Below, piece after piece: positions 2,373-63,500 of a DNA stretch of 64,000 nt. Location of the stretch: the NCBI GenBank assembly GCA_964016885.1, contig OZ024741.1, positions 325,686,001 to 325,750,000 of the forward strand, given 5' to 3'. The position numbers and the translations under genes are program-made. The stretch is from Eledone cirrhosa (Eukaryota). The notes under the pieces were generated by a model, which did not search any database, was not told where the DNA came from, and saw only the letters and a program-made list of their open reading frames with translations. The first letter of the stretch is position 1. Each line of letters begins with the position of its first letter.

Positions 2373-4288
2373 ATGTTAAACGAAGCGAACGAAAATAGTA
2401 GTGGAGGACAGCGGTAAGAGTTGTAAGCTCGCACGCTTTAGTCCCCCCTTCCTTCCCAACTAACGTCATAGAGAAGGAAGGAAAAAATAAAATAAAAACA
2501 GACGAATCTGCGGAGAAAAATGACGAAAACACAAATCTGGACATGGATTCCAACAACGAAAAAAAAAAATTTGAAAAATTGCATGACAATATTAATACCA
2601 CAAACAAAGACACAACAAACACAAAAATAACATTTGAAAACAACATCATAACAGAAAGCAAAGCAGACGACAAAGTCAATACCAATAATATTTCATTTGC
2701 ACAAACAACAAAGAAATCTTTAACATATATACCTGAAAATATTTCAGATGTGGCACAAAGAATTGCAGACGCCAAAAAATATATAACTGAAGGAGAAAAT
2801 GGTATTTTATCGGTAAAAATGCCTCAAGAACTCACCAAAGACATTGAAAGTCGAACGGTCGTTATCCGCACCATCAACAACATTTCAAAAATACCTGAAC
2901 AGCCAACTCAAACAGAAATCTAAACAGTACTTACAGAAGTACTTAATGAAACCACTTTCATAAGAAAAGACAGACTGTATGGAAGCCTAGCGATTATTAT
3001 GAAGAACGAATCGGCGGCAAAAAAATGTGCTTTGTCACCGATTCGTTCGAAAAATTTTACCTTTTATCCATCTTATATGGGTAAAAGAACTCAACGCATA
3101 TGGCTGGATGCAATGATGCCAGATGTGGACTACTGCTGGCTCATAGCTGGCTTCATCGATCCAGCGAATGACAACGTGATTTCCATTGGGAAAACCACAG
3201 GCAATGCGTTCAGTGGAACAGGTATAGAACTTGTAGTGCAAATGAAGCCTGAACGCATCGCCCAAATACCCGACAGAATCCTATTAGCGGGCCACGGGTA
3301 TATAAACATTAGCGTGGAGGGGAGAAGGCCGTCCTGTCATATCTGTGCAGGAAGAGGGCACCTGCAGGCGGCTTGTCCCCAACTCAACAAAAAGAAAACC
3401 CTGCTACCAACATCAGCTCCACCACCACCACCACCACCACAACAGATAAACAAACAACAAAACTCAGTCCCACCCAACCCGTCCCTCAGTAAAACTACAC
3501 CACCACCACAACACAAACAGTCACAACACATTACCCCAAAACAAAATACAGGCCCACCCAACCCCTCACTCAATAAAACAACACAACCACCGCAGCCACA
3601 ACACACAACACAGTCTAACATAGTGACATCCATCTCCCCCACAAAGAAAACCAACACGGAAACATTACCAGCAAACATACCTCTTCCCTCCAACACTGAA
3701 GATAACCCAACGAATTCGGAGGAAGAAACGGAGTCCTTCAGACAGATTAAAAGGAAAAAAAGAAAACATGTGCAAAACACACAAGGCCAAACAACCCCCA
3801 CCCAAATGTCAACACAATCCAACAAAACACAAAACACCCCTCCAGCAACAAACAAAACCAAACCTACCCCTCCCCTCTTCGAAACACTCACACCATCCGA
3901 AAAAAAGACATTACACTATACTTACATCAACAGAAACAATAATAAATTAAATGAACTCATAAACAATAATCCTTCGGTACAAACCGAAGGTGTAAACTTT
4001 GTTTCTTCAGAAAACTACCCACATTTAAAATTAATAAAGATCCCAATGAACCTCTACCAAAAACTAAAAAAGGATTTTAAGGTGGACGTAAGTCCACCCT
4101 CTGTCAAACCCATAAACCGCGTCCTACTAAAAAGCTTTCCCCCTCCCTTTCTCCTCCCCAACACAACTCCAAACACCCCAACCCCACCACACACTGACGA
4201 CCCCACACCACCACAAGACACCCCTTCACCCAACACCACCTACCCCATGGAAGTCGTGCGACCCGAACCCCGGGAAGCAGAAAGGTAG
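2373..4288 (+). pseudogene. E2 ORF1 (gag-like, CCHC knuckle), premature stop
   Basis: ORFs 2543-2923 and 2999-4288 share a frame, separated by TAA at 2921-2923; knuckle CHICAGRGHLQAAC; start uncertain. Confidence 0.85.
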
Positions 4289-4321
4289 GTCTCTACACTC
4301 TCCTTTGGCTTTGCCGCCCAC

Positions 4322-7300: not shown

Positions 7301-7758
7301 ACAGACACGGGCGCCCGGGCAGGGATCCCTCAAAAAAGATTTGCCCTAGATGCGTGCGTCACGAAGAAACCGTTGCGCACGCATTGGTGCAATGTCCGGG
7401 CGTGGCTGATCTGTGGGGCTACGCTGAACGACTGCTGTCGCGGGTGGCGCCGATTCAATTGACCGCCGAGTCCGTGATGACAATCAAACCGCCTCCCCTC
7501 TTCACAAAGGAAGCAAAGGCGGTTTTTCTGTGCGTAATAGCCATGTTGAAAGAGGTTGTTTGGTGGACACGATTGAAAGGTCTGAGGTCAGGCAACTTCC
7601 TCTCTGGCCATAGTCTGGTCTACTTCTTCCGATATCACTTCGGAAGAAGGATAAGAATGGAGAGAGAGGTGCTTGGCCACAGGCAGTTTTATGAAAGGTG
7701 GGTGATAGTGGCGAGAATGGCTCGTGTAAATGGGCCTTCTCTGTATACCATCCTGTAG
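4322..7758 (+). pseudogene. E2 ORF2 (APE + RT + CCHC), stop at 7169-7171 and frameshift near 7275
   Basis: NARGL, ICET, GDWN, SYLDR, MDH (APE); AYADD (RT); CPRCVRHEETVAHALVQC. Confidence 0.92.
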
Positions 7759-7888: not shown

Positions 7889-8418
7889 TGACCACCGAGT
7901 CCATTGTCATGATCAAACCGCCACCCTCCTTCAAAAACGAAGGAGAGGCGGTTTTCCTTTGTGTGATAGCTATGGCGAAAGAGGTTGTATGGTGGACAAG
8001 GTTGAAAGGGCTGAGGTCAGACACCTTTCTCTCCGGCCAACAACTGATTCTTTTTTTCAAATACCACTTTGGAAGAAGAATCAGGATGGAGAGAGAGGTG
8101 CTGTACCCCAGCAAGTTTTATGAAAGGTGGGTGAAAGTGGCGAGAATGGCCCGAGTGAATGGGCCTTCTCTCTATATCAGCCTGTAGATTGAGGAAAAGG
8201 AGGAGGAGAGGAAAGGAGTACAAGCTCTTCGTACTCCTGGAGATGAGGGTTGCACATTTTTTTCGGGGGTACCCATATAAACTGTCTCCCTCTATTGGGG
8301 AAAATCGACTAACTTTTAAATTCCATCTGTGATAACATTTTACACGTTTTTATTGTATGTAAACTTCCCCCTTTGTATTTGTCCCCTTCTTTTGTGCCCC
8401 TGTGGCTAATAAAGAAAT
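7889..8418 (+). mobile_element. E2b: 5'-truncated copy (subfamily C, ~530 bp)
   Basis: Near-identical to the 3' end of E13; ORF2 stop 8187; AATAAA then TATC. Confidence 0.93.
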
Positions 8419-8930: not shown

Positions 8931-10573
8931 GCAACAATAAAGACAACAAAAACAACAACAACACAAACGTCACAAGTATCCACACACCAAACGAAAAAGA
9001 CAACAACAACAACAAAGATGAAAACAACTCAAACGACGAGAAACAAAACAATACTAAAATCCAAAACGAAAACAAAATATCTTTTGCACAAACGGCTAAA
9101 TTCTCAGTCGCTTATGTGCTGGAAGATATTTCAAAAGCAAAAGAAATGCTGGAAAAAGCCAAGAAATATGTGTCTTTTGGCGAAAACGGTTCGTTTTCTA
9201 TACATTCACCTCCGGAGCTAAAAAGACAGACGGAATTACGAACTGTCGTATTCCGAACAATTTTAAATAAAACAAAGAAACCAGCGCAACCATCTCAAGC
9301 GGAAATTCAGTTAGTCTTGAAAGACGCGATGAGAGATATCACTTTTATACAAAAGGATAAACTCTATGGGAGTTTATCCATATTGATGAAAGACGAATTG
9401 GCGGCAAAAAAATACTCTGTGTCGCCAATTCGGTCCACACACTACACCTTCTTCCCCACCTACATGGGTAAAAAAACCCAGAGGATATGGATAACCACCA
9501 TCACCCCAAACATAAACTACTGGTGGTTACTAACCGGTTTCCTCAATTTAGACGAGGACAACCTCATTTCAATAGGGAAGGCATCCGGCGACGCGTTCAG
9601 TGGAACGAGCATCGAAGTTCTGACCCAAATAAGGCCAGAACGCATCGCCCAAATCCCTGAGCGCGTCATGCTGGATGACCGTACCCACCTCAACATTATT
9701 GTGGAGGGTAGGCGTCCCTCCTGTTACCTCTGTGGCAATAGAGGTCACCTGAGGGCTGCCTGTCCCCAGCTCACACAGAAAAAAACACTGCTACCAACAC
9801 CAACACCACCCCAACTACAACAACAAAAACAACCACAACAACAACAAAAACCAACAACCCCACCACCACCACCACAACAACAACAACAAACACGTGAAAA
9901 AATAACACAGAATACTGTCTCACCCAATCCCTCCCCACCCAAAACAAATACAAAAACACGCACACCGCAAACACTACCAGAAAACATACCCCTCCCACCC
10001 AACAAGGAAGACGAACCTCTTTCGTCGCAAGACGAAAAAGATCCCTTCCAACAAGTAAAAAGAAAGAAGAGGAGACGCACCACAGACACACATGTTAACT
10101 TTAACCCCCCCCCCCCAAGAGAACACAAACTACACACAAACCACCCCTCCCTGTCACACAACACTAACTGCTACACAAAAAAAGACCTTACAATACACAT
10201 ACATGAACACAGACAAAGAATTACGGAAAACAATTTCAGCAAACCCGTCGGTCCAAACTGAAGGGCCAAACTTTATAACTGCTGTGGGACTACCTCATTT
10301 GAAAATGATAAAAGTCCCAATGCACTTGTACAAAACACTGAAAATAAATTTCACGGAGGACGTGGGCCCCCCCGGCGCCACACCAATCAACCGCGTCCTC
10401 CTAAAAAATTTCACCCCCCCCCACCCCACCCAGACACCCACTCAACCACAAACACCCCAACCCCACAACACACCGATGCCCCTTCTCTTCCACAAACCAC
10501 CACCCCACCCAACAACCCATCCCCAACCAGCATGGAAATTGAGCGGCCCGTTTCCCGGGACGCAGAGAGGTAA
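8726..10573 (+). pseudogene. E3 ORF1, frameshifted in C-rich runs
   Basis: MAEAS start; knuckle CYLCGNRGHLRAAC; C-terminal block in ORF 10092-10610; homologous end MEIERPVSRDAER* at 10532-10573. Confidence 0.85.
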
Positions 10574-10597
10574 GTGCCTTTTCTCTTTACCACCAAC

Positions 10598-13500: not shown

Positions 13501-14022
13501 AACTACCAGAAGTCCCTGGCCTGGCAGTGCTACCGAGGAGCTTTACCCGTTCGAGAAAGGCTCTACAGACACGGGCGCCCGGGTAGGGACCCCGCCAAAA
13601 AGATCTGTCCCAGATGCGTGTGCGACGAGGAAACCGTTGCACACGCATTGGTACACTGCTCGGGCGTAGCCGATCTGTGGGGCTATGTCGAACAACTGCT
13701 GTCAAGGGTGGGACCGATCTGGTTGACCATCGAGTCTATTGTAATGATCAAGCCGCCTCCCCCCTTCAAAGATGAAGCAGAGGCGGTGTTTCTGTGCGTA
13801 ATAGCCATGGCGAAAGAGGTTGTATGGTGGACGCGTCTGAAAGGACTGAGGTCAGGCACCTTTCTCTCTGGCCAACAACTGGTCCGTTTCTTCCGATATC
13901 ATTTCGGAAGAAGGATCAGGATGGAGAGAGAGGTGCTGCACCCCAGTCGTTTTTATGAAAGGTGGGTGAAAGTGGCGAGAATGGCCCGTGTGAATAGGCC
14001 TTCTGTTTACATGAGCCTGTAG
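10598..14022 (+). pseudogene. E3 ORF2; short deletion near 10726 breaks the N-terminus, remaining 1089 codons open
   Basis: ATG 10598 (MAVLRVGCLNARGL) ends at TAG 10727-10729; ORF 10753-14022 holds the rest of APE, RT and CPRCVCDEETVAHALVHC. Confidence 0.93.
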
Positions 14023-14407: not shown

Positions 14408-17400
14408 CTGGGATGGACACATGTGTTAAACTTGCTCGGTAAGTTTTGTTTAAATTTTTTTAGAAATTCGTCATTGTAAACTTTTATTTTTATACTATTT
14501 GTAGAGGGACTGACAGGTCAAATTTTGATCTGGTCAGTCTCCCAAAATATCGTGCCCCGCAGGACAAAAACATCCAAAATAATTTCGAAAAAAAAATTTT
14601 GCAAAACACTTCAATTTTTAAAAAATGGCTGAAGCAAGGCACTTACTTTTTTGTCAAAACAAGAAGATGGGAAGGGAAAGCCATGCCTACTTGACCAGCA
14701 GGTAGTTGCAGACATGGACAAAGGAATGCCAACATTATCGCCTCAACATTTAGAAGAGGAACAATCTTCAGCTGCTTGTAAGCAACTGAACACGCCTGAC
14801 GTCACAAACGTCATATGTATCCACACACAGAAGAAGTATATGTAGCAAATACTAACACTACCACAACCAACAACAACAACACAATAAATGAGAACAACAA
14901 CAATACAACAAAAGGAATCAACGGCAACACAACGAATGAGACCATCATCACCACCAACAACAACAATAACAACATTTCATTTGCAGCAACAGTTGCTAAG
15001 TAGCAGGTTTTTAAATACTACTCCATGGACATTTCCCAAAAGTCCCAATATTTGGAAGAAGCTTCCAACTATGTGACGTTTGAGGGAGACACCCCGCACA
15101 TACACATACCCCACAAGTAAGAGAAATGATACACAAAAAGAAACTAATTTATAAAACAGTTGACATCATTGCCAAAAAACCCATAACGCTCCCAACAAGC
15201 ACTATTGAAGCTGCACTAAAAGACATCAAGCCAGACGTGGCATACCCCCAAAGAGGTAAACAGTATGGAAGTGTGTCAGTGCTCTTTAAGAGCGAAACTC
15301 TGGCACAAAAACACTCAGTTCACCCAATAAAAACGGATCAACACATCTTCTTCCCCGCATACATGGGAAGACGATCCTACAAAATAAAAATAACCAGGAT
15401 CCCAGCAGAGGTCAACATATGGTGGATCCTACGTTGTATCCTGAAGAAGGATGAGGACACCCTCCAATCTGTAGACAGGACAGACCGGCATAACTGGTTT
15501 GGAACCTGCATCGAGGTTCTGGTACAAATGAGGCCAGAGAGAGTTGAGAAAATACCGGACAGGATCAGCCTTGAGGAAGATGTCATCTCCATTTTAGTGG
15601 AGGGGAAAAGACCTCAGTGCTATAAGTGTGGGAAAACCACACACTTAAAGGCCTTTTGCCCTCTCTTAAACAAACCGAGGACAAACAAGGTGTTATTACC
15701 AACACCAAAACCCCATCATCAACACTCCAAACCAAACACAACACAAACACCTGCAACATCCACTTCCACATCACCACAGACCACAGACCAGAGACAACCA
15801 CACACACAAAATCGCACTGAAAAACCCTCCATTGCCTCTTCCCCCTCTGTCAAATACTTCCATAAACACCTGCGCAAACACTCCACCACACAACATACCC
15901 CTCTCATCTACCCCTGATTCAGAAGTCTCAGATACGGGAACCTCTACATCTCCAAGTGAGAATGAAGAGGAACCCCCAAAATCCAAAAAACGAAAAAGAC
16001 ACAAAAAAGACACAAAAACATCTACAGAAAACACGCACACACCCAACCCCACCATAAACACACCGCCTCAAACAACAAACACACCAACAACACAATCACC
16101 ACCAACACAACCAAACACTTCACCAACAAAACAAACACCCACACCACCATAATCACAAACCCAACCACAAAAAGAAAACTACAAACAGAAACAGTACACA
16201 TAAAAAACAAAACACACTACACATACATAAAAACAAAAAACAAAGAACTGGTGGAAACTGTCCGAAAGGACCCCACAATACAAACAGAAGGGAAAACCTT
16301 CCCCACCAACGATCCACCCCTAAACCTCAAACTTATCAGGGTAACAACCCTACAGTATGAAACTTTAAAAGAGAATTTCCTACATGATGTGGGACCCCCT
16401 TGCCAAAAGCCTCTTAACTGTGTCCTGCTAAAAGGATTCCCTCCCTCCCCAAACACCACCAATCTGGACATGGAGATCGAAGAACCCGACCTCCAGGAAA
16501 CGAAAAGGTAAGTGTTCCTGCCTTTTCTCTCTTTAACTCTTCTTCACCAACATGGCGACTATACAAGCAACATGTCCCATGATTTTGAGATCTACGCATC
16601 TCTCTGTCAGCCAGGAGGTGGAGGGGGAGTTGCTGTTCTGTTTCGAAAAAGCTTGGATCTCAAAATACAGACGATTCACTTGAACCCGGAGAACAGCCTG
16701 GTGGTCCTAGACGTGAATGGTAGTGAAGGTGGAGCTTTCAGACTGGTTGCCGTGTATGCCCCGACTGGGACATCGCGACCAGAGTTCTTCAAGCGTCTAG
16801 AGCCATTCCTGGGAACGTCTCACTCTTTAGTGTTAGCGGGGACTGGAATGGCATCTTAGACGCACGTTGGGACTATGTAGGAGCTTGTGATAATAGAGGG
16901 GTGTAATAGCCTCAAAAATTTCATCAGCCAATTCCAACTGGCTGATAGGTATCGACTAGACTTCCCAAGTGCACCACTGTGGACGTGGAGCAACCGCACT
17001 GCGTCTTCTAGATCGTATTTAGATAGATTTTTAATTAGACAGAATGATAAGGAAACATTAAGCTGTCCACAAATGCACATGGTTGCCTATTCAGACCACA
17101 AATTAGTCACCTGTGTAAGTCAACCTTGATAGAACACATAGACAGGGACCCGGATACTGGAAGCTAAACATGTCACTCCCGGCGTGTAAGGCCTACAGTA
17201 AACGGATTAGCACCTTAATTAAGTTCCAGTTGACGGGGGCGATCGTCAACAACAGGTGGTGGAGCTCTGTCAAGAGAGCAATTAGAATAGAATCGATAGT
17301 ATTTAGCAAGGAAGTAGCTTTAGAAAAAAACAAAACTGAAAAGGAACTGGTAGCTAAAATAGAAGAGGCACTTAGGAATGGCAGTACAGCTGACGTGCTA

Positions 17401-23200: not shown

Positions 23201-25117
23201 ATGAACGCTGCGTCCAACGATAATGGTGGTGGAGAGGCGGTAAGACTACAAAGCTCGCAGTCAACAACGTCTTCTTCACTAGATACTATAGAGATGGAAA
23301 GACAAAATGAAAATAGAAAAACGAATTCATATCCAAACAACACAAATGACACCAAACAGTTCAATGACAACAAAAATAACAGCAAAACCAATAATGATGA
23401 TAAAAGCAACAATGATAACAACAACAAAGAAAAAAATAAAGACAACGCCAATAACACCAGCATCAAAGACAACAACAACACCAAGGAAAATACGGATGAT
23501 ACCAACATCGGTGACAACAAGAATAACAACAAGAATAACAACAATAATGACAACACCACCAATACGGATTCCACAAAGAAACCAAAAATCTCCTTTGCAG
23601 AGAAAGTTCAAAAGAAAGAAGAATTGATATATCTCGACATAACAAATGCTGAACAACTTTTAAAGGACGCTAAGAGATATGTCACCTTCGAAAAAAATGG
23701 TGCTTTCAGCATCAATTCTCCGGTAGAAATTCGCAAGGAAACTGCTCTCAAAACGATAGTTTTTAGGACAGTTTCCAATTCTACCCGAAAACCAGTCCAA
23801 TTGTCACAGAAAGAAATTGAACTGGTTTTCAAAAATTCAATGAATGATATTGCATTCATTCAAAGAAGCAAACTTTTTGGGAGTATTTCGGTACTCATGA
23901 AGGATCAATTGACGGCCCAAAATTACTCTGTGTCGCCAATTGTATCCAACCTGTACACCTTTTTCCCTACATACATGGGAAAAAGGACACAAAAGATCAG
24001 AATCACAAGTGTCACACCAAAGGTGAACATATGGTGGATACTGTGCGGCTTCATCAATTTTGATGAAGACAGAATACTGTCAGTAGGAAAGACCCCCAGA
24101 GATGTACTCAATGGGACTAGCATTGAAGTTCTGGTGCAAATGAGCCCAGAGCGAATAGCTATGATCCCACAGCGTGTACTCCTGGACGGACTCACCTACA
24201 TAAACCTTTCGGTTGAGGGTAGGCGGCCTGCATGTTACCATTGCTTTAGCAGGGGTCACCTGAGGGCTTCCTGTCCTAAACTAATGAACCAAAAAAAGGC
24301 TCTTCTGCCGACACCCATCAAAACAACACAACCACCAACACCACCACAACAACAACAACACCAACACACAAAAATAACCACAACAAACACAGTCCCACCC
24401 AACCCCACTCCACCTAAAACCACTGCAAAATCACATACAGACACAACAGCTCCCCAAGACATACCCCTCCCCAATCACACAGACGATACAACAGATGAGG
24501 CTATCTCGCCATCACCCAGTGAAGACGAGGGAGAACCCCATCGCTCGAAAAGAAAGAAAAGACATCACAAAAGCAAAAAACCAGCAAACACTACCACAAA
24601 CATACAACCACCAACACAAACAACAAAAATATCACAAACAAAACCCCCACCTGCTGAAAACAAAATACCTACAACAAAACGAAAGCACACACAAGAACTA
24701 CAGACAAAAACAAACACAACACAAGAAAATTACACTTACACTTACATAAACACTGAAAACAAAACACTAATGGAGACCATCACGAACGACCCTTCGGTTT
24801 TCACCGAAGGGAAAACTTTCGCCCACTCTATTAAAAATAGTAAAAAACTGAACCTAAAACTGATTAGGGTCCCTATACAAACTTATAGGTCCCTAAAAGA
24901 AACATTTGAGAAGGATGTGGGTAATTCCTGCGCGAAACTACTCAACCGCGTCCTTCTCAAATGCCTCCCCACCCCAGACACCCCCATCCCACCAGACCCC
25001 ACCCCACCAAACATCTGCATCCCCACCCCGCCGGAAACCACCACCCATCCAGACAACCACTCCAACACCCCCATGGAAATCGTGCGGCCTGGTCCCCAGG
25101 AGGCGAAGGGTGAGTGA
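23201..25117 (+). CDS. E8 ORF1 protein, 638 aa, gag-like nucleic-acid-binding protein
   Basis: Open frame; Asn-rich N-terminus, ISFA motif, conserved central domain, CYHCFSRGHLRASC knuckle, Pro/Thr-rich region, basic patch, conserved C-terminal block. Confidence 0.92.
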   Translation: MNAASNDNGGGEAVRLQSSQSTTSSSLDTIEMERQNENRKTNSYPNNTNDTKQFNDNKNNSKTNNDDKSNNDNNNKEKNKDNANNTSIKDNNNTKENTDDTNIGDNKNNNKNNNNNDNTTNTDSTKKPKISFAEKVQKKEELIYLDITNAEQLLKDAKRYVTFEKNGAFSINSPVEIRKETALKTIVFRTVSNSTRKPVQLSQKEIELVFKNSMNDIAFIQRSKLFGSISVLMKDQLTAQNYSVSPIVSNLYTFFPTYMGKRTQKIRITSVTPKVNIWWILCGFINFDEDRILSVGKTPRDVLNGTSIEVLVQMSPERIAMIPQRVLLDGLTYINLSVEGRRPACYHCFSRGHLRASCPKLMNQKKALLPTPIKTTQPPTPPQQQQHQHTKITTTNTVPPNPTPPKTTAKSHTDTTAPQDIPLPNHTDDTTDEAISPSPSEDEGEPHRSKRKKRHHKSKKPANTTTNIQPPTQTTKISQTKPPPAENKIPTTKRKHTQELQTKTNTTQENYTYTYINTENKTLMETITNDPSVFTEGKTFAHSIKNSKKLNLKLIRVPIQTYRSLKETFEKDVGNSCAKLLNRVLLKCLPTPDTPIPPDPTPPNICIPTPPETTTHPDNHSNTPMEIVRPGPQEAKGE

Positions 25118-28100: not shown

Positions 28101-28559
28101 TACAGACATGGGCGCCCGGGAAGGGACCCTGCAAAAAAGATCTGTCCGAGGTGCGTGCGAGACGAAGAAACCGTCGCGCCCGCATTCATACACTGCCCGG
28201 GCGTCACTGACCTGTGGGGCTATGTAGAACGACTATTGTCGCGGGTGGGACCAATCCAGTTGACCACCGAGTCCATTGTCATGATCAAACCGCCACCCTC
28301 CTTCAAAAACGAAGGAGTGGCGGTTTTCCTTTGTGTGATAGCTATGGCGAAAGAGGTTGTATGGTGGACAAGGTTGAAAGGGCTGAGGTCAGACACCTTT
28401 CTCTCCGGCCAACAACTGATTCTTTTTTTCAAATACCACTTTGGAAGAAGAATCAGGATGGAGAGAGAGGTGCTGTACCCCAGCAAGTTTTATGAAAGGT
28501 GGGTGAAAGTGGCGAGAATGGCCCGAGTGAATGGGCCTTCTCTCTATATCAGCCTGTAG
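25151..28559 (+). pseudogene. E8 ORF2 with TGG>TAG at 25574-25576 and a 29-nt deletion near 27800
   Basis: Comparison with E13; the deletion lies between two CGAGC repeats. Confidence 0.93.
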
Positions 28560-44324: not shown

Positions 44325-47300
44325 ACCGGATGGCATATACGTTCTTCACATCGGCTCCGCGAATATTGGAGATATTACGTGTTAAAAGTAAGTGTTTGTC
44401 TGTATTCTTGCGTTATTGCGTTAATTAACCCCCTTGCCTGGGTCTTCGGACATTAAGGTTAATTTATTTCACCCCTTTTGGGGTGAAATTTTTCATCCTA
44501 AAAATCTTGCAATTGTCTCTACGCTAGTGGTAATGGAACCCATTACCACAGGTAACAATGACACGCCCACTAAACAAACTGAAGGAGAGCGGGTAGCTGA
44601 GGCAACAAACCACCCTACTGAAAGAATAATGATTATTAGAAACATTGAAAAAATGGAACCTAACCCTAATGAAAAAAATGTGAAAAAAATTACCAAAAAA
44701 ATTGCCAAAATTAATGGATGCCGTTTCGACTTTTCACAGCGCCACGCCCACCAGCAAAGGTGAAAGAGAAGTAGTAGCTGTGACTACAAGTCTCTCGGAT
44801 AATGAAAATATAAGTGAAGACTTTGAAAAAATGGAGTCTAACCCCAAAGGGAAAAAAATGTGAACGAATACACCAACATAAGTAACACAGACACAACAAA
44901 AACAACTTTCGCCCAGACAACAAAAATATCAATCACATATACACCTATTGACTTAACTGCCGCCAGAGAGAAACTGGCAGAAGCAAAAAAGCACATAGTC
45001 TTGGGGGAGAACGGAATGTTTTCCATTAATTCCCCCCCAGAATTCAAGAAAACGAGACAAGAAAACACTGTTCTGTTTAGAACAGTCCTAAACAACACAA
45101 GGAAGTCAGCACAGCTCACCGAAAGGGAGATAGAGTTGGTCCTAAAAGACCATATGAAGAATATTCTCTTCATACGAAAGGACCGACTCTATGGCAGCAT
45201 TTCTGTTTTAACAAAAGACAAAGAAACAGCACAGAGGCTTTCCATAAGCCCACTCACATCAACAGCATACAGTTTCTATCCCTCCTACATGGGTAGAAGA
45301 ACTCAGCGAATCAAAATACAGACAATGCTGCCCACAATGGACTTCTGGTCGGCTATTGCTGGCTTCATAGACATGGGCGAGGACACAGTGCTGTCAATGG
45401 GGAAGGCATCTGGAGATGCGTTCCTGGGAATGGGCCTCGACCTACTAGTACAAATGAGGCCCGAAAGAATAGCGCAAATCCCGGATCGCATCTGGCTGGA
45501 TGACCTCACCCCAATATATATAATTGTAGAGGGGAGAAGACCAGCATACTATTCATGCATGGAAAGGGGACACGTTAAGGCTAACTGCCCGAATCGTATC
45601 CCCCAAAAAGGACTATTGCCCACACCCACTACAAACAGTACACCAACACCACCCACCTCCAAAAATACACTAACACCATCAACACACACAGCAAACAAAA
45701 TACAGACACCACCAACCACAAGCACAACACAAACATCACCTCCACCAGCACCAAACACAAGCACGACACAAAAATCACCACCACCATCACCAACCACAAG
45801 CACAACACAAACATCACCACCACCATCACCAACCACAAGCATGACACAAACATCACCACCACCACCACCAAAAAACACATTCCAAAAAAACAAAAAAACA
45901 GCAACAATTCTACCCCTCCCGCAAAAAAAACAACCAGACACCACGTCCCTCCCACCTAGCGCTGAAGAGTTTCCCCAACTTCTGAAGAAGAAGGAGGAGA
46001 AGCCTTCAGACAAGTTAAAATGAAAAAACGAAAGCACACACCCAGCACACCACAACAACAAATAACCCACACACAAATACCAACTCCAATCAAAAACACC
46101 CCACCCTCGACAAACAAAAATAAATCTGCGCCTCCCCCCTTCGAAACATTGACAGCATCACAAAAAAAGACTTTACAATACACATATATAAATAAAGAAA
46201 ACAAAAAACTGTTTAAATTAATAAACAATAGCCCTTTGGTGCAGACCGAAGGGCCAAACTTTATCTCAACAGAGAACTTCACTCATTTGAAAATGATAAA
46301 GGTGCCTCTGGACCTCTATCGTTCCTTAAAAGAACAATTTAAACAGGACGTGAGCACCCCCTGTTTAAAACCGTTAAATCGCGTCCTCTTGAAATATTTC
46401 CCCATAACCTCCCCTCTCCCTGACACAACTGCAAATACCCTAACCCCACCACACTCGGATACCCCCACACCACCACAACACATCCCTCCACCCAACACAC
46501 CCGACCCCATGGAAATTACACAACCCGGAGAGGTAGGTGCTATTCTTTCTTCACTTTCAACACCAAAACAGATCAATTGAGAGTTGGTTGTTTGAATGCG
46601 CGTGGCCTGGGCTCAGCTTGGAAGCAAGCAAAGCTTCTAAGTGATCTCAGGTCACGAAGTATAGATATGATGGTTGTTTGCGAGAGTCGGATCAGCAGCG
46701 TGCGACAGCTGGCTCCCGCCTTCGATGACTTTGAGATGCACGCATCTCTCTGTCAACCCGTAGGTGGGGGTGGGGTTGCCGTACTGCTGGATAAACGTCT
46801 GGCTCTCGACGTACAGATTGTTCACTCGGACCCGGGGGGTCGATTACTGGTGCTGGACGTCGGAGGCGGTGAAGGCGGGGCTTTCAGACTGGAGGTCTTT
46901 ATGCCTCCTTCGGGGCCGAAAGAGCCGACTTCTTCCAGCGTCTGGAGACTTTTCTAGGAACGTTGCGTTCCCTGCTTTTAGTGGGGGACTGGAATGGAAT
47001 CCTAGATGCGCGTTGGGACTATGCAGGGGCATGTCCCGATAGAGCGGGGTGTAGCAGCCTCAAGGGGTTACTCGATCGATTCGACCTGGTCGATAGATTT
47101 CGACTAGATTTTCCAACTGTGCCAACCTGGACTTGGGCAAACCGCAGTGGTCAATCTAGATCGTACCTAGATAGGTTTTTGGTTAGGAGTAAGGATAGGG
47201 ACGTATTTAGTTGTCCAGAATTGCTCATGGTTGGCTATTCAGATCACAAATTAGTGACCTGCGTGGTCAACCTTGATAGAACGCATAGACAGGGTCCCAG

Positions 47301-54699: not shown

Positions 54700-54736
54700 T
54701 ATATCTATCTATCTATCTATCTATCTCTCTCTCTAT
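54700..54736 (+). repeat. (TATC)n/(TC)n tract
   Basis: About 6 TATC units then TCTCTCTCTAT. Confidence 0.95.
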
Positions 54737-54790
54737 CAGTCGTGTGTCACTTCGCGGAGAAGTTTCCGTTAATTTATGTAAGGAAAAAAC

Positions 54791-54796
54791 GTAAGT
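54791..54796 (+). promoter_or_regulatory. 5'UTR donor-consensus GTRAGT (representative)
   Basis: Present near the 5' end of all 7 full-length copies: 2222, 8537, 14439, 23036, 44388, 54791, 60615. Confidence 0.5.
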
Positions 54797-54955
54797 TTTT
54801 AGTTCAATTTTATATCATTGTGTAACTTGACCACCCGTCTGGACCTTCAGGTGGTGGGTCAACTCATTTTCGCCCCTTCAGGGGCGGAATATCCATTTAA
54901 AAAATTTTTCTCCATCGAATCTTGGAAAAAAATATTGTAAAATTTTGATTACGTT

Positions 54956-56872
54956 ATGAACGCTGCGTCCAACGATAATGGTGGTGGAGAGGCGGTAAGA
55001 CTACAAAGCTCGCAGTCAACAACGTCTTCTTCACTAGATACTATAGAGATGGAAAGACAAAATGAAAATAAAAAAACGAATTCACATCCAAACAACACAA
55101 ATGACACCAAACAGCTCAATGACAACAAAAATAACAGCAAAACCAATAATGATGATAAAAGCAACAATGATAACAACAACAAAGAAAAAAATAAAGACAA
55201 CGCCAATAACACCAGCATCAAAGACAACAACAACACCAAGGAAAATACGGATGATACCAACATCGGTGACAACAAGAATAACAACAAGAATAACAACAAT
55301 AATGACAACACCACCAATACGGATTCCACAAAGAAACCAAAAATCTCCTTTGCGGAGAAAGTTCAAAAGAAAGAACAATTGATATATCTCGACATAACAA
55401 ATGCTGAACACCTTTTAAAGGACGCTAAGAGATATGTCACCTTCGAAAAAAATGGTGCTTTCAGCATCAATTCTCCGGTAGAAATTCGCAAGGAAACTGC
55501 TCTCAAAACGATAGTTTTTAGGACAGTTTCCAATTCTACCCGAAAACCAGTCCAATTGTCACAGAAAGATATTGAACTGGTTTTCAAAGATTCAATGAAT
55601 GATATTGCATTCATTCAAAGAAGCAAACTTTTTGGGAGTATTTCGGTACTGATGAAGGATCAATTGACGGCCCAAAATTACTCTGTGTCGCCAATTGTAT
55701 CCAACCTGTACACCTTTTTCCCTACATACATGGGAAAAAGGACACAAAAGATCAGAATCACAAGTGTCACACCAAAGGTGAACATATGGTGGATACTGTG
55801 CGGCTTCATCAATTTTGATGAAGACAGAATACTGTCAGTAGGCAAGTCCCCCAGAGATGTATTCAATGGGACTAGCATTGAAGTTCTGGTGCAAATGAGC
55901 CCAGAGCGAATAGCTATGATCCCACAGCGTGTACTCCTGGACGGACTTACCTACATAAACCTTTCGGTTGAGGGTAGGCGGCCTTCATGTTACCATTGCT
56001 TTAGCAGGGGTCACCTGAGGGCTTCCTGTCCTAAACTAATGAACCAAAAAAAGGCTCTTCTGCCAACACCCATCAAAACAACACAACCACCAACACCACC
56101 ACTACAACAACAACACCAACACACAAAAATAACCACAACAAACACAGTCCCACCCAACCTCACTCCACCTAAAACCACTGCAAAATCACATACAGACACA
56201 ACAGCTCCCCAAGACATACCCCTCCCCAATCACACAGACGATACAACAGATGAGGCTATCTCGCCATCACCCAGTGAAGACGAGGGAGAACCCCATCGCT
56301 CGAAAAGAAAGAAAAGACATCACAAAAGCAAAAAACCAGCAAACACTACCACAAACATACAACCACCAACACAAACAACAAAAATATCACAAACAAAACC
56401 CCCACCTCCTGAAAACAAAATACCTACAACAAAACGAAAGCACACACAAGAACTACAGACAAAAACAAACACAACACAAGAAAATTACACTTACACTTAC
56501 ATAAACACTGAAAACAAAACACTAATGGAGACCATTACGAACGACCCTTCGGTTTTCACCGAAGGGAAAACTTTCGCCCACTCTATAAAAAATAGCAAAA
56601 AAATGAACCTAAAACTGATTAGGGTCCCTATACAAACTTATAGGTCCCTAAAAGAAACATTTGAGAAGGATGTGGGGAATTCCTGCGTGAAACCACTCAA
56701 CCGCGTCCTTCTCAAATGCCTCCCCACCCCAGACACCCCCATTCCACCAGACCCCACCCCACCAAACATCTGCGTCCCCACCCCGCCGGAAACCACCACC
56801 CATCCAGACAACCCCTCCAACACCCCCATGGAAATCGTGCGGCCTGGTCCCCAGGAGGCGAAGGGTGAGTGA
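54956..56872 (+). CDS. E13 ORF1 protein (638 aa; single CX2CX4HX4C knuckle)
   Basis: Open frame, near-identical to E8 ORF1. Confidence 0.93.
   Translation: MNAASNDNGGGEAVRLQSSQSTTSSSLDTIEMERQNENKKTNSHPNNTNDTKQLNDNKNNSKTNNDDKSNNDNNNKEKNKDNANNTSIKDNNNTKENTDDTNIGDNKNNNKNNNNNDNTTNTDSTKKPKISFAEKVQKKEQLIYLDITNAEHLLKDAKRYVTFEKNGAFSINSPVEIRKETALKTIVFRTVSNSTRKPVQLSQKDIELVFKDSMNDIAFIQRSKLFGSISVLMKDQLTAQNYSVSPIVSNLYTFFPTYMGKRTQKIRITSVTPKVNIWWILCGFINFDEDRILSVGKSPRDVFNGTSIEVLVQMSPERIAMIPQRVLLDGLTYINLSVEGRRPSCYHCFSRGHLRASCPKLMNQKKALLPTPIKTTQPPTPPLQQQHQHTKITTTNTVPPNLTPPKTTAKSHTDTTAPQDIPLPNHTDDTTDEAISPSPSEDEGEPHRSKRKKRHHKSKKPANTTTNIQPPTQTTKISQTKPPPPENKIPTTKRKHTQELQTKTNTTQENYTYTYINTENKTLMETITNDPSVFTEGKTFAHSIKNSKKMNLKLIRVPIQTYRSLKETFEKDVGNSCVKPLNRVLLKCLPTPDTPIPPDPTPPNICVPTPPETTTHPDNPSNTPMEIVRPGPQEAKGE
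56865..56870 (+). promoter_or_regulatory. Putative 5' splice donor overlapping the ORF1 stop (representative)
   Basis: G|GTGAGT here and in E8; AG|GTAAGT at 10570, 16508, 62667; AG|GTAGGT at 4285, 46533. Confidence 0.6.
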
Positions 56873-56905
56873 TCTCTTTTCCTCTTTTAACTTTTCAGCA
56901 CCAAC

Positions 56906-59900
56906 ATGGCCAATATAAGAGTTGGATGTGTGAACGTACGCGGCCTGGGGATGCCCTGGAAACAGGGCAAACTCTTAAACGACCTCAGGTCGCACAGTTT
57001 GGATGTGGTAGCCATTTGCGAGTCCAGGATCCACGGCGAGCGACAGCTGGCCCCCATCTTCGATGACTTTGAGATCTACGCATCTCTCTGTCAACCGGGG
57101 GGTGGGGGCGGAGTTGCCGTTTTGCTGCGGAAACACCTGGGCCTCGTAACACAGACGGTACATCTGGACCCGGAGGGTCGACTGGTGGTCCTAGACGTTG
57201 ACGGTAGTGAAGGTGGAGCGTTCAGGCTGGTGGCCGCATATGCCCCATCCGGGACACCGCGGCCAGACTTCTTCAAACGTCTAGAGACTTTTCTGGGAAC
57301 GTCCCGCTCCTTGCTTTTAGTGGGGGACTGGAATGGAATCCTAGATGCACGTTGGGACTATGTGGGAGCATGTCCCGATAAAGGGGGGTGTAACAGCCTC
57401 AAACAGTTAATCGACCGATTTGACCTGGCCGATAGATATCGACTAGATTTTCCGACTGCGCCACTGTGGACGTGGAGTAATCGTAGCGGAACATCTAGAT
57501 CGTACCTAGATAGGGTTCTAGTTAGAAATAAGGATAGGGACATGTTAAGCTGTCCACAAATGTTCATGGTTGCCTATTCATATCACAAACTAGTGACCTG
57601 CATGGCCAACCTTGATAGAACCCATAGACAAGGACCCGGCTACTGGAAGCTGAACTTGTCGTTACCGACAAGCAAAGCCTACAGTAGACGGATTAGCACT
57701 TTAGTTAAACAGCACTTGACAGGGGCCATTGTCAACAACAGATGGTGGTACTCTCTCAAGAGGGCAGTTAGATTAGACTCGATAGTTTTTAGTAAAGAAT
57801 TAGCGTTAGATAGAAATAGAACCGAGAAGGAACTGGTAGATAAAGTAGAAGAGGCTATTAGAAGTGGCAACGTAGCCAGCGTGCTAGCAACGAGAACGGC
57901 CTTGGACCAGTTCTTCGACGCAAAGCACGAGGGCTGCGTTGTCAGAAGCAAAATACGTGCTCTGGGAAACGAGGGAGCCAAAGCTGTTAGCTGGGCCCGA
58001 GTGACGGAGGCAAAAAGTGGCAACAAGTCCACGATTCGGTCTTTGAAGGACCAAAACGGACGCGTGATACGTGAGCCGAAGCAGATGTGTGCGGCTTTTC
58101 AGCGGCACTTTGCTCGGCTGTTCGGGGGGAGCGGCGCGCCGGGAGAGGCTATGGATTTCGGTCCATACCTCGACGGCCTACCGCGACTCTCGGACAGCGA
58201 GGCGAAGTTCTGCGAAAAGCCGATTTCAGCCACTGAGATAGGGGACGCGCTGAGCCAATGCGGCAAACGCAAATCTCCAGGTCTCGACGGTCTACCCTAC
58301 GAATTTTACGTAGCAATGCCGGACTTATTCTCCGGTCTCCTGGAAGCGGTCTACTGCAACTGGCAACAGAACGGGAGAATTCCCAATTCTGTAACCGGGG
58401 GCGTGGTCACACTAATCAGGAAGGACGAGAATAAGGGGGATGACATAGGCAACTTCCGGCCCATAACTCTGCTAAACACAGAGTTACAGATTTTGGCCAA
58501 GGTGTTGGCAAAGAGGCTGGCGCTTGTCGTCGAGAACCTGGTGGGAGAAGCGCAGACATGCGCGATCCCGACCAGGTCCATACACGACAACCTCCACCTC
58601 ATGCGATACATCATAGAGAGGGTAGGGTGTAAACCCGGCTTCGGTGGGGCCCTGATCAACTTGGATCAGTCTAAGGCTTTCGATAGGGTTGACCATCGTT
58701 ACCTGGATGCGGTGCTCGAGGCGGCAGGCTTCGGACCCGTGTTCAGGGGCTGGATTGCTGCAATGCACAACAGCAACATCTGCTCAAGGGTCAAGGTGAA
58801 CGGTTACCTCTCGGAGCCGTTCCATATTACGCGATCCATTCGACAGGGATGCCCTCTCTCCTCCCTTCTGTACGTACTGACTCTCGAGCCACTACTGCGG
58901 AAGCTGGAGCTATTGCAGGGCATCCCTCTGGAACCGGGACTGCGGAAAGCGGCGTCGGCCTACGCCGACGACGTGACAGTAATGGTGTCGAGCGCCTCGC
59001 AAATCGAGGAAGTCGGCACCTTACTAAAGGAATACGAAAGTCTCACAGGAGCGAAGCTGAACCGGGACAAGTCCATCGGTTTGCAACTCGGATCGTGGAG
59101 AGGCAGACCGATGCCTTCCGATGGCGTCGTCGGACGCTGGACGGAAGGACCGGTAAAGCTGCTCGGGGTCTGGTTTGGTCCGGACCTCCAGGTGGAGAAG
59201 AACTGGAACGAAGTGACGGCCAAGGTGTTTGCACTCACCCAGAAGTGGGCCGAGTGCAAACTATCCTTGAAAGGTCGAGCGGAGGTGGCGAACACTTTTA
59301 TAGCGTCCGCCATCTACTACCGCTTGACCGTCGTGCCTTGTCCAGCCAAAACGCTCGCCAAAATGGAGCGCGCCCTCTTCCGATTCCTTTGGAAGAGGCG
59401 GGCTTCTTTGGTAAGAAGATCCATCTGCTGCCAACACCCTTCTAACGGAGGGCTGGGGATGCCGTGGTTGACGATGCGCAAACACGCGCTCAGGCTGCGG
59501 CATCTCTACGTATTCCTCACCGGACAACCGGTGTGGGCCCCGTTCGTGAGGCGAGCCTTCCCACGACTCGTCTCGCTGACCGAGCTGCAGTCCTGGGTCA
59601 AGCAGAGACCGAGGAAAATGGGCGACTGGCACATCGAATGTGCTCAGGCGCTCACAGCCCTCTGGCAGGCGGACCCGGCGATCAGTGGAGACTCCACTTC
59701 GTCATTCTATAGAGGGTTGGTCCGCAGCAAGTGCGACGACGCGCTCGGTGAAACTCTAGGCGTGGAGGAAGATGAACTGGCCAGTCTGTTCGGTAGGACC
59801 TTCCGCCCGGGACCGATGGACAACTTCCAAAAGTCCCTGGCCTGGCAGTGCTACCGAGGAGCTCTACCAGTTCGAGACAAGCTCTACAGACATGGGCGCC

Positions 59901-60343
59901 CGGGCAGGGACCCTGCAAAAAAGATCTGTCCGAGGTGCGTGCGAGACGAAGAAACCGTCGCGCACGCATTCATACACTGCCCGGGCGTCACTGACCTGTG
60001 GGGCTATGTGGAACGACTATTGTCGCGGGTGGGACCAATCCAGTTGACCACCGAGTCCATTGTCATGATCAAACCGCCACCCTCCTTCAAAAACGAAGGA
60101 GAGGCGGTTTTCCTTTGTGTGATAGCTATGGCGAAAGAGGTTGTATGGTGGACAAGGTTGAAAGGGCTGAGGTCAGACACCTTTCTCTCCGGCCAACAAC
60201 TGATTCTTTTTTTCAAATACCACTTTGGAAGAAGAATCAGGATGGAGAGAGAGGTGCTGTACCCCAGCAAGTTTTATGAAAGGTGGGTGAAAGTGGCGAG
60301 AATGGCCCGAGTGAATGGGCCTTCTCTCTATATCAGCCTGTAG
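56906..60343 (+). CDS. E13 ORF2 protein (1145 aa; APE endonuclease, reverse transcriptase, C-terminal CX2CX8HX4C)
   Basis: NVRGL, ICES, GDWN, SYLDR, S(D>Y)H; GPGYWKLN; KSPGLDGLPYEFY; FRPITLLN; LDQSKAFDRVDH; IRQGCPLS; AYADD. These motifs are typical of L1/Tx1-clade ORF2. Confidence 0.96.
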   Translation: MANIRVGCVNVRGLGMPWKQGKLLNDLRSHSLDVVAICESRIHGERQLAPIFDDFEIYASLCQPGGGGGVAVLLRKHLGLVTQTVHLDPEGRLVVLDVDGSEGGAFRLVAAYAPSGTPRPDFFKRLETFLGTSRSLLLVGDWNGILDARWDYVGACPDKGGCNSLKQLIDRFDLADRYRLDFPTAPLWTWSNRSGTSRSYLDRVLVRNKDRDMLSCPQMFMVAYSYHKLVTCMANLDRTHRQGPGYWKLNLSLPTSKAYSRRISTLVKQHLTGAIVNNRWWYSLKRAVRLDSIVFSKELALDRNRTEKELVDKVEEAIRSGNVASVLATRTALDQFFDAKHEGCVVRSKIRALGNEGAKAVSWARVTEAKSGNKSTIRSLKDQNGRVIREPKQMCAAFQRHFARLFGGSGAPGEAMDFGPYLDGLPRLSDSEAKFCEKPISATEIGDALSQCGKRKSPGLDGLPYEFYVAMPDLFSGLLEAVYCNWQQNGRIPNSVTGGVVTLIRKDENKGDDIGNFRPITLLNTELQILAKVLAKRLALVVENLVGEAQTCAIPTRSIHDNLHLMRYIIERVGCKPGFGGALINLDQSKAFDRVDHRYLDAVLEAAGFGPVFRGWIAAMHNSNICSRVKVNGYLSEPFHITRSIRQGCPLSSLLYVLTLEPLLRKLELLQGIPLEPGLRKAASAYADDVTVMVSSASQIEEVGTLLKEYESLTGAKLNRDKSIGLQLGSWRGRPMPSDGVVGRWTEGPVKLLGVWFGPDLQVEKNWNEVTAKVFALTQKWAECKLSLKGRAEVANTFIASAIYYRLTVVPCPAKTLAKMERALFRFLWKRRASLVRRSICCQHPSNGGLGMPWLTMRKHALRLRHLYVFLTGQPVWAPFVRRAFPRLVSLTELQSWVKQRPRKMGDWHIECAQALTALWQADPAISGDSTSSFYRGLVRSKCDDALGETLGVEEDELASLFGRTFRPGPMDNFQKSLAWQCYRGALPVRDKLYRHGRPGRDPAKKICPRCVRDEETVAHAFIHCPGVTDLWGYVERLLSRVGPIQLTTESIVMIKPPPSFKNEGEAVFLCVIAMAKEVVWWTRLKGLRSDTFLSGQQLILFFKYHFGRRIRMEREVLYPSKFYERWVKVARMARVNGPSLYISL
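60320..60343 (+). promoter_or_regulatory. Putative 3' splice acceptor using the ORF2 TAG stop (representative)
   Basis: CCTTCTCTCTATATCAGCCTGTAG|G; CTRTAG preceded by a pyrimidine-rich run in all but the most decayed copy (E9). Confidence 0.55.
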
Positions 60344-60595
60344 GTTGAGGAAAAGGAGGAGGAGAGGAAAGGAGTACAAGCTCTTCGTACTCCTGGAGAT
60401 GAGGGTTGCACATTTTTTTCGGGGGTCTGTGTTACCCATATAAACTGTCTCCCTCTATTGGGGAAAATCGACTAACTTTTAAATTCCATCTGTGATAACA
60501 TTTTACACGTTTTTATTGTATGTAAACTTCCCCCTTTGTATTTGTCCCCTTCTTTTGTGCCCCTGTGGCTAATAAAGAAATATATCTTTCTGTCT

Positions 60596-63500
60596 AACGT
60601 GTGGAATATCGCCGGTAAGTTTTTTGTTAATTTCTATGCAAAAAACCGATCTAATTGTTTGAAAAAAAGACAACACTTTGTAGATTAACCCCCAAGCTGA
60701 ATTGTCAGCCGGGTGGTAATCCCATTTTTCGCAAATGTAGGGGCGAAAATTTTATTTAAAAGTTTGTTTTAAAATATCAAATTTTACAAAGTAAAAAAAA
60801 CTTGAGCAACACTAGAACGCTGGAGAACGTTAATAGAGAAAAGAGAGAGAAAGAGGCAGATATTAGCGTTATATCTGCTTCTACTGCTATGGACGTTGCC
60901 ATAGATACTGTCACAAAAGAAAAAAATATATCAACATTTGAAAATGTTACAATTTCTACCGCCGAAGCGGAGAAAAATGACAATAACACACGGGAAAACA
61001 CGGCAAAAAAACCCATTGACATACATACACATGAAAAAGACATCAACAACTCTACAGATACATCTACACATAAAATTTCCAACAACGATAACATCATTAT
61101 TAACAACAACATCATACAAAAAAAGAAAATGTCTTTTGCTGACACAGTCAACAAGAAACAAGATTTTATAAATCTTGATATCTCCAACGCAAGGGATATG
61201 CTCCAGCAAGGGAGAAAATTTGTAACTTTCGAAGAAAGAGGTGGATTTAGAATTAACTCACCCCTTGAAATAAAGGAAGACACAAACCGCCGATCAGTCA
61301 CTTTTAGGACTGTGTCAAATTCGTCAAGAAAACCGACATTTGTTAATCAGTCAGATATAGAAGATTCTTTCAAGGAGATTCTAGGAAATGTCGATTTTCT
61401 CCAGCGAGGAAAACAGTACGGAAGTGTTTCCGTACTGTTTAAAAGCGAGGCACTGGCCCCAAAAAACTCTGTGACACCAATAGTGTCAAAAGCATACACC
61501 TTTTTCCCTACATACATGGGGAAAAGGACACAAAAAATAAAAATAAAAAACATACCTCCAAGCATTAACATCTGGTGGATCTTGGCTGGCTTCGTAGAAC
61601 CAGAAACAGATATAATACTTTCGATACGAAAATCCATTCGACAAAGGTGGGCGGGCACCGATTTGGAGATTCTGTTGCAAATGAAACCGGAGAGAATCTC
61701 CAAAATACCCGAAAGAGTCGTTATTGATAATAACAACAAAATAAACATTTCGGTAGAAGGAAGAAAATTTCACTGCTTTCGCTGTGGTAGCACATCTCAC
61801 CTAAAAGCCTCTTGTCCACAAACACACAACAGCAACATCATAAAAAAAACGCTATTACCAACACCAAAACAACCACCACCACCACCACAAGTACAACGAC
61901 AGACGAAACGAGCAACCACACCAAAACAAACAGACACTTAACCAACAACAACAGAAAAAACAGAGACAACACCCCTGAAGAACACATCCCCACTCCATCC
62001 CACTCCATCAAACACTACCACAAACACACATACCGAAACACCACCACCACCACACAACATACCCTTACCCCACACACCTGACGATGATTATTCATCGACG
62101 GATGAAGCTGCTTCTCCTTCTTTAAGTGAAGAGGGAGAACCGCGGAAATCCAAAAAACAAAAAAAGAGACACCACAAAACCCCCAGAACTCCAATCACCA
62201 ACACCAACACACAACCACAGACACAAACAACAACACAAACAACACCACAGTCAAACATCCCCCTATCAGCAAAACCAGCACCAACACCACCCCAAACACA
62301 AGCACCCACCATAAAAAGAAAACTCCCGGATGAACAACAAACTAAAACAATACAACAAAAACACAAACAACAATACGCATACATCAACACAAACAACAAG
62401 AGTTTGATGGAGGTCATCTCCCAAAACCCCAAGGTGGAGACGGAGGGCAAAACTTTCGTCAAGGCAGAATCGTCTCCACACCTTAAACTTATAAGGGTTT
62501 CTATGGAAACCTATAAAGACCTGAAAATTAAATTTTCACAGGACGTGGGCAACCCCTGCCACAAACCCATCAACCGCGTCCTGTTGAAAGGTTTCCCCAC
62601 CCCACCCAACACCCCATCCAGCACCCAAATGGAGATTGAACAACCCGATCTCCAGGAAACGAAAAGGTAAGTGCACCTTTCGTCCCTTTTCGCCAACTTT
62701 TCTTCACCAACATGGCTGGTTTACGAGTTGGAACCGTGAATGTGCGTGGCCTAGGGATGCCCTGGAAACAGGGCCAACTTTTAAACGACCTTAGGTCACA
62801 CAGTATGGATGTGATAGCCATCACCGAGTCCAGAATCCACAACAGGCAGCAACTAACCCCCATCTTCGACGACTTTGAGATCTACGCATCTCTCTGTCAG
62901 CCAGGAGGTGGAGGTGGAGTGGCTGTCATGTTTCGGAAGAACCTGGACGTCGGAGTACAGCAAGTACACTTGGGCCCGGAGGGTAGACTGGTAGTCCTAG
63001 ACGTGAACAGTATCGGAGGTGGAGCCTTCAGACTGGTGGCCGTTTATGCCCCGACCGGGCAATCGCAATCACGGCCAGACTTCTTTAAGCGTCTAGAGTC
63101 TTTTCTGGGAACGTCTCGCTCCTTACTTTTAGTGGGGGACTGGAATGGTATCCTAGATGCACGATGGGACTATGTGGGAGCATGTCCCAGTAGAGCGGGG
63201 TGCAACAGCGTCAAAACTTTAACTGGCCGATAGGTATCGATTGGATTTCCCGACTGCACCACAGTGGACGTGGGTAAACCGCAGTGGGACATCTAGATCG
63301 TATTTAGATAGGTTCTTCATTAGAGAAAGGGACAAGGATATGTTAAGCTGTCCACGAATGCACATGGTTGCCTATTCAGATCACAAGTTAGTCGTCTGCT
63401 TAGTCAACCGTGATAGAATACATAGACAGGGTCCCGGATACTGGAAGCTGAACGTGTCGTTGCCGGCACGTAAAGCTTACAGTGAACGGATAAGTAAACT

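Follow-up and report, generated by a model that had tools for sequence, protein, structure and literature searches.

The locus and element E13

The window analysed here, a 64,000-nucleotide stretch of the Eledone cirrhosa genome (assembly GCA_964016885.1, contig OZ024741.1, positions 325,686,001 to 325,750,000; G000:C2:325686001-325750000; genome size 3.0 Gb), holds a head-to-tail cluster of related long interspersed nuclear elements (LINEs). One of these, E13, is a full-length copy with two open reading frames, ORF1 and ORF2. A 5' splice-site consensus (the donor) lies at the end of its ORF1 and a candidate 3' splice site (the acceptor) at the end of its ORF2, and the recurrence of these signals among its relatives suggests that the whole of ORF2 is probably treated as a single regulated intron, whose removal would leave an ORF1-only messenger RNA (mRNA). 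The features of E13 are as follows.

54738..60596, forward strand: E13, full-length Tx1-like LINE of the C1 subfamily in the head-to-tail cluster, beginning directly 3' of the previous element's TATC/TC tail
54956..56872, forward strand: ORF1, 638 amino acids, with a CX2CX4HX4C zinc knuckle; predicted end of exon 1 at 56864
56862..56870, forward strand: phase-1 5' splice-site consensus with its GT at 56865-56866, lying two codons upstream of the ORF1 stop
56873..56905, forward strand: pyrimidine-rich linker running up to the ORF2 ATG, which has a strong Kozak context
56906..60343, forward strand: ORF2 (APE endonuclease, reverse transcriptase (RT), zf-RVT), entirely within the predicted 3,479-nt intron 56865-60343
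60320..60343, forward strand: predicted 3' splice region, comprising a tract of pyrimidines, a CAG (60334-60336) and the ORF2 stop TAG (60341-60343)
60344..60375, forward strand: purine-rich first part of the 3' untranslated region (3'UTR), predicted to be exon 2; a phase-1 join to the TAG would bring the TGA at 60346-60348 into frame
60571..60576, forward strand: polyadenylation hexamer, immediately 5' of the microsatellite tail

The original prediction, drawn from the letters of this window, had proposed such an intron, with the donor on the ORF1 stop, the acceptor on the ORF2 stop and a phase-matched replacement stop beyond the join. Its positions for E13 hold, from ORF1 and the phase-1 GT at 56865 through ORF2 to the TGA, as does the competing CAG which it had noted 7 nt upstream of the TAG. 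The 181-nt ORF1/ORF2 junction of E13 has 40 scored genome matches with 100% identity, and the donor region of its subfamily occurs in the genome in 306 exact copies.

ORF2 of the E13 type carries an APE endonuclease, an RT and a C-terminal zinc-binding domain (PF03372, E=6e-12; PF00078, E=7e-27; PF13966, E=4e-06; Atlas score 0.98). The CCHC zinc knuckle of ORF1 is seen as CX2CX4HX4C in the aligned ORF1s and in the zf-CCHC neighbours of the ORF1 core in the Atlas, while PF00098 matches the ORF1 of element E3 with E=0.0026, below the curated cut-off, and the E13 ORF1 has no Pfam match. From this architecture, and from general knowledge of the group, the family is provisionally labelled Tx1-like (L1 group). 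It shares with the Tx1 clade (Tx1L, Kibi, Koshi, Keno) a CCHC-bearing ORF1 and an APE-RT-zf ORF2, and at the junctions viewed its copies sit in microsatellite tails; the targets of Kibi and Koshi are (TC)n and (TTC)n, and the splice, intron and stop-codon text in the available part of the source concerns small nuclear RNA and host introns, not Tx1 splicing (PMC4494074). Argonauta hians, Octopus sinensis and O. bimaculoides supply named relatives. A HMMER search with ORF1 found relatives without DNA context, a word-indexed ORF1 search gave no matches and metagenome scans gave no loci, and the loci L195-L197 are not this element.

Within the E13 endonuclease (window ~57580-57590), Tyr replaces the Asp of the Ser-Asp-His motif on comparison with protein P0003, and because of this substitution the copy is probably endonuclease-dead although its frames are open.

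A conserved donor at the end of ORF1

As originally claimed, a donor consensus is present at all seven ORF1 ends in the window, with GT at 4285, 10570, 16508, 25110, 46533, 56865 and 62667. The six donors besides that of E13 are listed below.

4282..4290, forward strand: E2 donor (A family, phase 2), paired with TAG 7756-7758, stop directly after the join
10567..10575, forward strand: E3 donor (B1 family, phase 2); a join to TAG 14020-14022 would extend ORF1
16505..16513, forward strand: E4 donor (D family, phase 2); TAG 19845-19847 would give a 27-codon extension
25107..25115, forward strand: E8 donor (C1, phase 1), paired with TAG 28557-28559
46530..46538, forward strand: E10 donor (phase-0 family), paired with TAG 49994-49996, stop three codons on
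62664..62672, forward strand: E14 donor (D type, phase 2); the 3' end of the element runs beyond the window

A wider comparison drew on 40 fetched elements, from which one representative was taken for each of 15 subfamilies, reaching down to ~68% ORF2 identity. A 5' splice consensus lies on the stop of ORF1 in all 15 representatives despite unlike flanks, and the variants among them are all U1-compatible forms. The ORF1-end donor is the sole strict sense-strand match in 9 of the 15, and elsewhere in these representatives (~84 kb) the strict pattern is matched 7 times in sense and 17 times in antisense. Genome-wide, a pattern built on the ORF2 start recovers 8,841 junction-bearing copies; among the 100 of these that were listed, 96 show the donor GT in a near-consensus context as judged by eye. 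The excess of the donor at the ORF1 end over chance is thus confirmed. Judged from the sequences, it is one ancestral site under selection as opposed to 15 independent events, and it is counted as one because the subfamilies are kin.

A hint at the protein level comes from two ORF1 relatives, P0007 (32% identical to its best genome matches) and P0008 from Argonauta hians, which end in Gly-Lys or Gly-Lys-Ser, endings that would match the reading of a phase-1 donor.

The candidate acceptor at or beyond the end of ORF2

The original prediction described ORF2 as ending in CTRTAG, which is true of 13 of the 14 ORF2 ends in the window; the remaining end, at 44059, is mutated. Across the subfamilies the ORF2 stop is TAG in 13 of 15, and by a hand-made acceptor score this TAG ranks between 1 and 19 of ~260 AGs in 12 of the 13 TAG families and 46 in E4. 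The CAG and TAG of E13 take ranks 5 and 3 among 257 AGs by the same crude score.

Two sister subfamilies, F2 and F3, end ORF2 in TAA instead. Each has a poly-T/CAG site in the 3'UTR, at +158 and +178 respectively, which ranks first among all AGs (1/261 and 1/264). The site is found in 17 of 17 unselected TAA copies and also in L192, five further TAA copies being excluded from this count as they had been chosen by AG pattern. It is missing from all 10 TAG-ending elements of the sister groups that were seen, where an A-rich or mixed stretch without CAG stands at the same place. Since the tree joins F2 and F3 as sister families next to F4, with full support, the loss of TAG and the gain of the new acceptor map to one branch, and the poly-T/CAG acceptor, as read from these sequences, is a derived feature of the same clade that lost the TAG. 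This turnover matches what would be predicted for an intron in use and is the best evidence that splicing may be genuine, while the acceptor as a whole is supported less firmly than the donor.

Phase match and the replacement stop

A join from the donor to the TAG brings a stop in the donor's own phase within three codons in 9 of the 13 TAG families (permutation p 0.009, kinship ignored), where the background is 8% per position. The E2 join 4284^7759 behaves as originally described, with a phase-2 donor and a stop immediately after the join. Phase-1 families F4, G1, G7a and G7b vary at the two bases following the TAG and keep the TGA constant. Families added later, G1, G7a, G7b and F8c (phase 1) and G4 (phase 2), fit the match, tallied by eye, without a p-value and outside the tree and the permutation test; a decayed F8-type copy (L186) does not fit.

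Several of the individual readings first offered for the window need revision. E10 had been taken for a decayed phase-2 element, while its family is of phase 0 and the stop still falls three codons after the TAG. The exception made for E3 stands in that its 3' end, G-TGG, would extend ORF1, but this is a trait of the family rather than a defect of the copy. E4 likewise would extend ORF1, by 27 codons, but not through decay, the D family having GT-TGA after the TAG and no upstream AG; the upstream TAG of E4 is private to that copy. It is in B1, C2 and C3 that an AG 7 nt upstream of the TAG would end ORF1 after one codon, as would the AAG at this position in the B1 copy L059, and for a phase-2 donor this AG lies in ORF2's own frame. 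Because D is without such a rescuing AG, the phase matches counted with the first AG or with either AG fall to 11/13 and 12/13 (their p-values predate the correction). Tested across subfamilies, the covariation of donor phase and stop that had been foreseen appears in nine families and breaks down in B1, C2, C3 and D. Of the single-intron proposal as a whole, the donor in 15 of 15 subfamilies and the new acceptor in the TAG-losing clade speak for it, but a strict phase-matched stop is not general and, on the sequences compared, holds as a tendency.

Proposed mechanism

In the mechanism that we propose, U1 would bind at the ORF1 end and the host spliceosome would remove the whole ~3.5-kb ORF2 as an intron, using as acceptor the AG at the ORF2 end or, in the TAA clade, the one in the 3'UTR. 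The product would be a capped, polyadenylated ORF1-only mRNA with its stop at or after the last junction, while RNA retaining the intron would serve as ORF2 message and as retrotransposition template. The spliced mRNA would presumably raise ORF1p over ORF2p, the stoichiometric role already suggested for ORF2 excision in the original prediction. An mRNA whose stop comes no earlier than its last junction should escape nonsense-mediated decay triggered by the exon junction complex, which would make a tight phase match optional; a nearby in-frame stop does follow the join in most families. Cis-preference of ORF2p, finally, might prevent spliced RNA from serving as a template for new genomic copies.

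That regulated splicing of ORF2 yields an ORF1-only mRNA is considered fairly likely, the splicing being read from signals in the DNA. Favoured on balance, and a shade more cautiously, is the broader picture of an octopod-wide Tx1-like LINE lineage in which ORF2 would be a regulated intron with the donor kept and the acceptor rebuilt after loss, convergent with copia, intron retention acting as the switch for retrotransposition and spliced RNA being excluded from copying.

Points against splicing and the search for spliced copies

A number of observations weigh against ORF2 being spliced out. The phase match through the TAG fails in the four families named above, and the phase-2 donor of D, in the absence of an upstream AG, would add 27 residues to ORF1. 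The first AG of E13's own family (C1) would add 34 codons, so this family needs the TAG, and in the TAA clade a join to the 3'UTR CAG would add 19 codons. On the acceptor side, the score is crude and hand-made, the turnover is one single evolutionary event, some TAG families carry high-scoring AGs in U-rich 3'UTRs too, and the pyrimidine tracts of D, F4 and F8 are weak (11-13 of 20).

A further point concerns retrocopies. Retrotransposed ORF2-less copies with the exact junction, which had been proposed as a check, were absent from 10 junction searches of the genome, exact patterns that miss mutated copies and that covered junctions other than the TAG junctions of the C2, C3, D and E10 types. 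Unspliced 3' ends served as denominators (8,676 + 13,732 with two patterns, ~22,400). A short interspersed nuclear element (SINE) with a similar 3' tail is nonetheless present at several of the loci seen, so the absence of spliced copies from these searches lowers the odds that spliced RNA is abundant. Cis-preference of ORF2p could account for missing spliced retrocopies.

Each candidate that was examined has another explanation. L035, L039 and L040 are chance matches within ORF1 of another family, L041 is an internal deletion with no GT donor, and L042 combines a deletion with point changes. Unrelated DNA accounts for L086, L087, L094 and L100 and an inversion for each of L097 and L102, and the remaining matches listed with them are small indels. 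L140 is again an inversion, L143, taken as an F3 junction, is a SINE tail adjoining a truncated 3' end, and the other 16 of the 18 matches in that search are mutated acceptors. Contigs of four runs (X4, X1, X5 and X6; kind unrecorded) are uninformative, the join 56864-to-60344 not being among the 15 joints listed, with 295 more beyond these.

Comparison with known systems

The closest parallel is copia of Drosophila, whose gag RNA is made by splicing out an intron that spans all of POL (PMC5580714). In the available part of another study this spliced RNA is ~10x more abundant, and the genomic reads include none that fits the spliced form (bioRxiv 10.1101/2023.05.27.542554). Both systems would remove one intron over the whole enzymatic region, leaving RNA for the structural protein (in copia a 2.1-kb spliced gag RNA), and donor and acceptor of the Eledone element are placed accordingly. 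Copia, however, is a Ty1/Copia long terminal repeat (LTR) element with gag-pol in which splicing is established, whereas the Eledone element is non-LTR with an APE-RT architecture and two separate ORFs, and its splicing is proposed from sequence signals. Because ORF1 already carries a stop codon, it can terminate without any splicing. By analogy, and on the fairly likely reading that splicing takes place, a Tx1-like non-LTR element would here do what copia does with its spliced gag RNA.

Arabidopsis EVD shGAG and barley BARE1 are similar in the stop soon after the junction and in a U1 site where the structural gene ends, but there, in the portion of the source available, a short intron is coupled to premature polyadenylation, whereas in the Eledone LINE the intron would take up the entire ORF2 and the usual 3' end would stay in place (PMC5580714). 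Human L1 gives rise to processed RNAs (SpORF2, prematurely polyadenylated forms and SpIREs), so that LINE RNA is spliced by the host there, but SpORF2 removes ORF1, the opposite outcome (PMC2896524; PMC5860796, both available in part). A repeat survey of O. vulgaris describes 13 recently active L1-Tx1 families, with 0 mentions of splicing in its accessible text (PMC13282606), and the accessible text of an Arabidopsis atlas reports many LINE isoforms without detail of an ORF2 intron (PMC13547354).

SpIREs, as far as the partial sources go, are genomic copies of spliced RNA, while none was found for the Eledone LINE; ORF2-less copies with the exact junction, of SpIRE or HAL1 type, gave 0 true matches among the junctions searched. 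HAL1 (half-L1) is a separate, LINE-derived genomic element that holds ORF1 only. It resembles the case presented here as an ORF1-only LINE product, but differs in that these searches found no ORF2-less Eledone copy with the junction. Searches of open full text turned up no account of a LINE that excises ORF2 as a single intron; such an account may exist in subscription papers, in Repbase notes or in supplements.

Alternative explanations

The best-surviving alternative, still rather unlikely, is that the donor is a docking site for the U1 small nuclear ribonucleoprotein that is rarely or never spliced, that it curbs premature polyadenylation or aids the export or stability of full-length RNA, and that the TAG and its pyrimidine tract reflect the C-terminal codons of ORF2. 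The donor does vary less than any of the acceptors, the junction searches yielded no spliced retrocopy, and the U1 site of EVD suppresses premature termination in the account available (PMC5580714). Against this, poly(A) hexamers are rare beyond the donor (0-2 in each ORF2 region and none in 9 of 15), lying mostly upstream in ORF1, and neither the new poly-T/CAG site of the TAG-losing clade nor the constant TGA after variable bases in phase-1 families is predicted by docking.

It is improbable that the donor is joined to variable acceptors (cryptic AGs in ORF2, the next tandem element or exons of the host), so that ORF2 is attenuated and no dedicated ORF1 mRNA is made, or that the acceptor pattern arose as a side effect of coding constraint. 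Several internal ORF2 AGs do score at or above the terminal TAG in 11 of the 13 TAG families and the elements do lie in head-to-tail arrays, but internal acceptors mostly lead to longer out-of-frame tails where the terminal ones stop within three codons in 12 of 13 families, and what the TAA clade acquired is a single specific acceptor of top rank. Excision of the whole of ORF2 is preferred over both. Splicing to an AG close by, where ORF2 begins (in the Arg codon before the Val-Gly motif, or in the linker CAG of C types), which would remove the ORF1 stop and fuse ORF1 to ORF2, is very improbable: every family has a linker rich in pyrimidines, phase-2 donors would join the Arg-codon AG in the ORF2 frame and the E10 family has no ORF2 ATG, but the introns would be just ~35-55 nt, D types read CGA at the Arg codon, C1 and the E10 family would be out of frame and most families have an ORF2 ATG with strong Kozak context.

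Significance

The excess of ORF1p over ORF2p in LINEs with two ORFs is usually ascribed to inefficient translation of ORF2 from one bicistronic RNA. A dedicated, spliced ORF1-only mRNA would, if true, be a different answer to the ORF1:ORF2 ratio, and it would place one of the most successful LINE families of the genome, with its thousands of junction-bearing copies, directly under host splicing control. Reads from ORF1 or the 3'UTR would then overstate the RNA competent for retrotransposition. Since named relatives are present in Octopus sinensis, O. bimaculoides and Argonauta hians, public octopus transcriptomes could test the splicing at once.

Other features of the family

One ORF1-only RefSeq model from Octopus sinensis (P0006, XP_036364761.1) has a Lys/Trp-rich tail faintly like the reading of the 3'UTR start in F4 and G1, and its exon structure may record the splice; its best genome matches are only 30-36% identical.

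The 3'UTRs (window 60380-60470 and homologues) contain GC-rich inverted repeats whose sequence differs by family and which may form a structure recognised by the RT. The predicted intron of the TAA clade would take these repeats out.

The E10 family (window 46533-46585; L198-L200 at ~2300-2345) reads ATA at the position of the ORF2 ATG, and its ORF2 frame, shifted by -1, runs across the ORF1 stop; even so, L200 aligns to ORF2 residues 2-1150 in one frame. The sequences suggest non-AUG initiation, stop-restart or frameshifting in this family.

Individual junctions that were viewed show elements starting directly in the microsatellite tail of another copy, after TATC in the A-D and F1 types and after ATT in the F2-F8 types. 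Head-to-tail arrays with ~5.9 kb spacing occur in the window (54700-54745), at L005/L006 and L017/L018 and at G000:C1:4225261-4255762, and such arrays likely reflect self-targeting through a microsatellite preference. The inversions in L097, L102 and L140 lie near the ORF1/ORF2 junction or the 3' end and resemble twin priming. Junction-bearing copies (8,841, one pattern) make up a large share of the ~22,400 3' ends (two patterns), which suggests that 5' truncation is unusually rare for a LINE. A SINE-like repeat adjoins ATT-tailed LINEs (L102, L143, and L043 at ~1690-1800 and 7980-8100), its tail resembling their last ~30 nt, and is possibly a non-autonomous partner of the ATT-tailed families.

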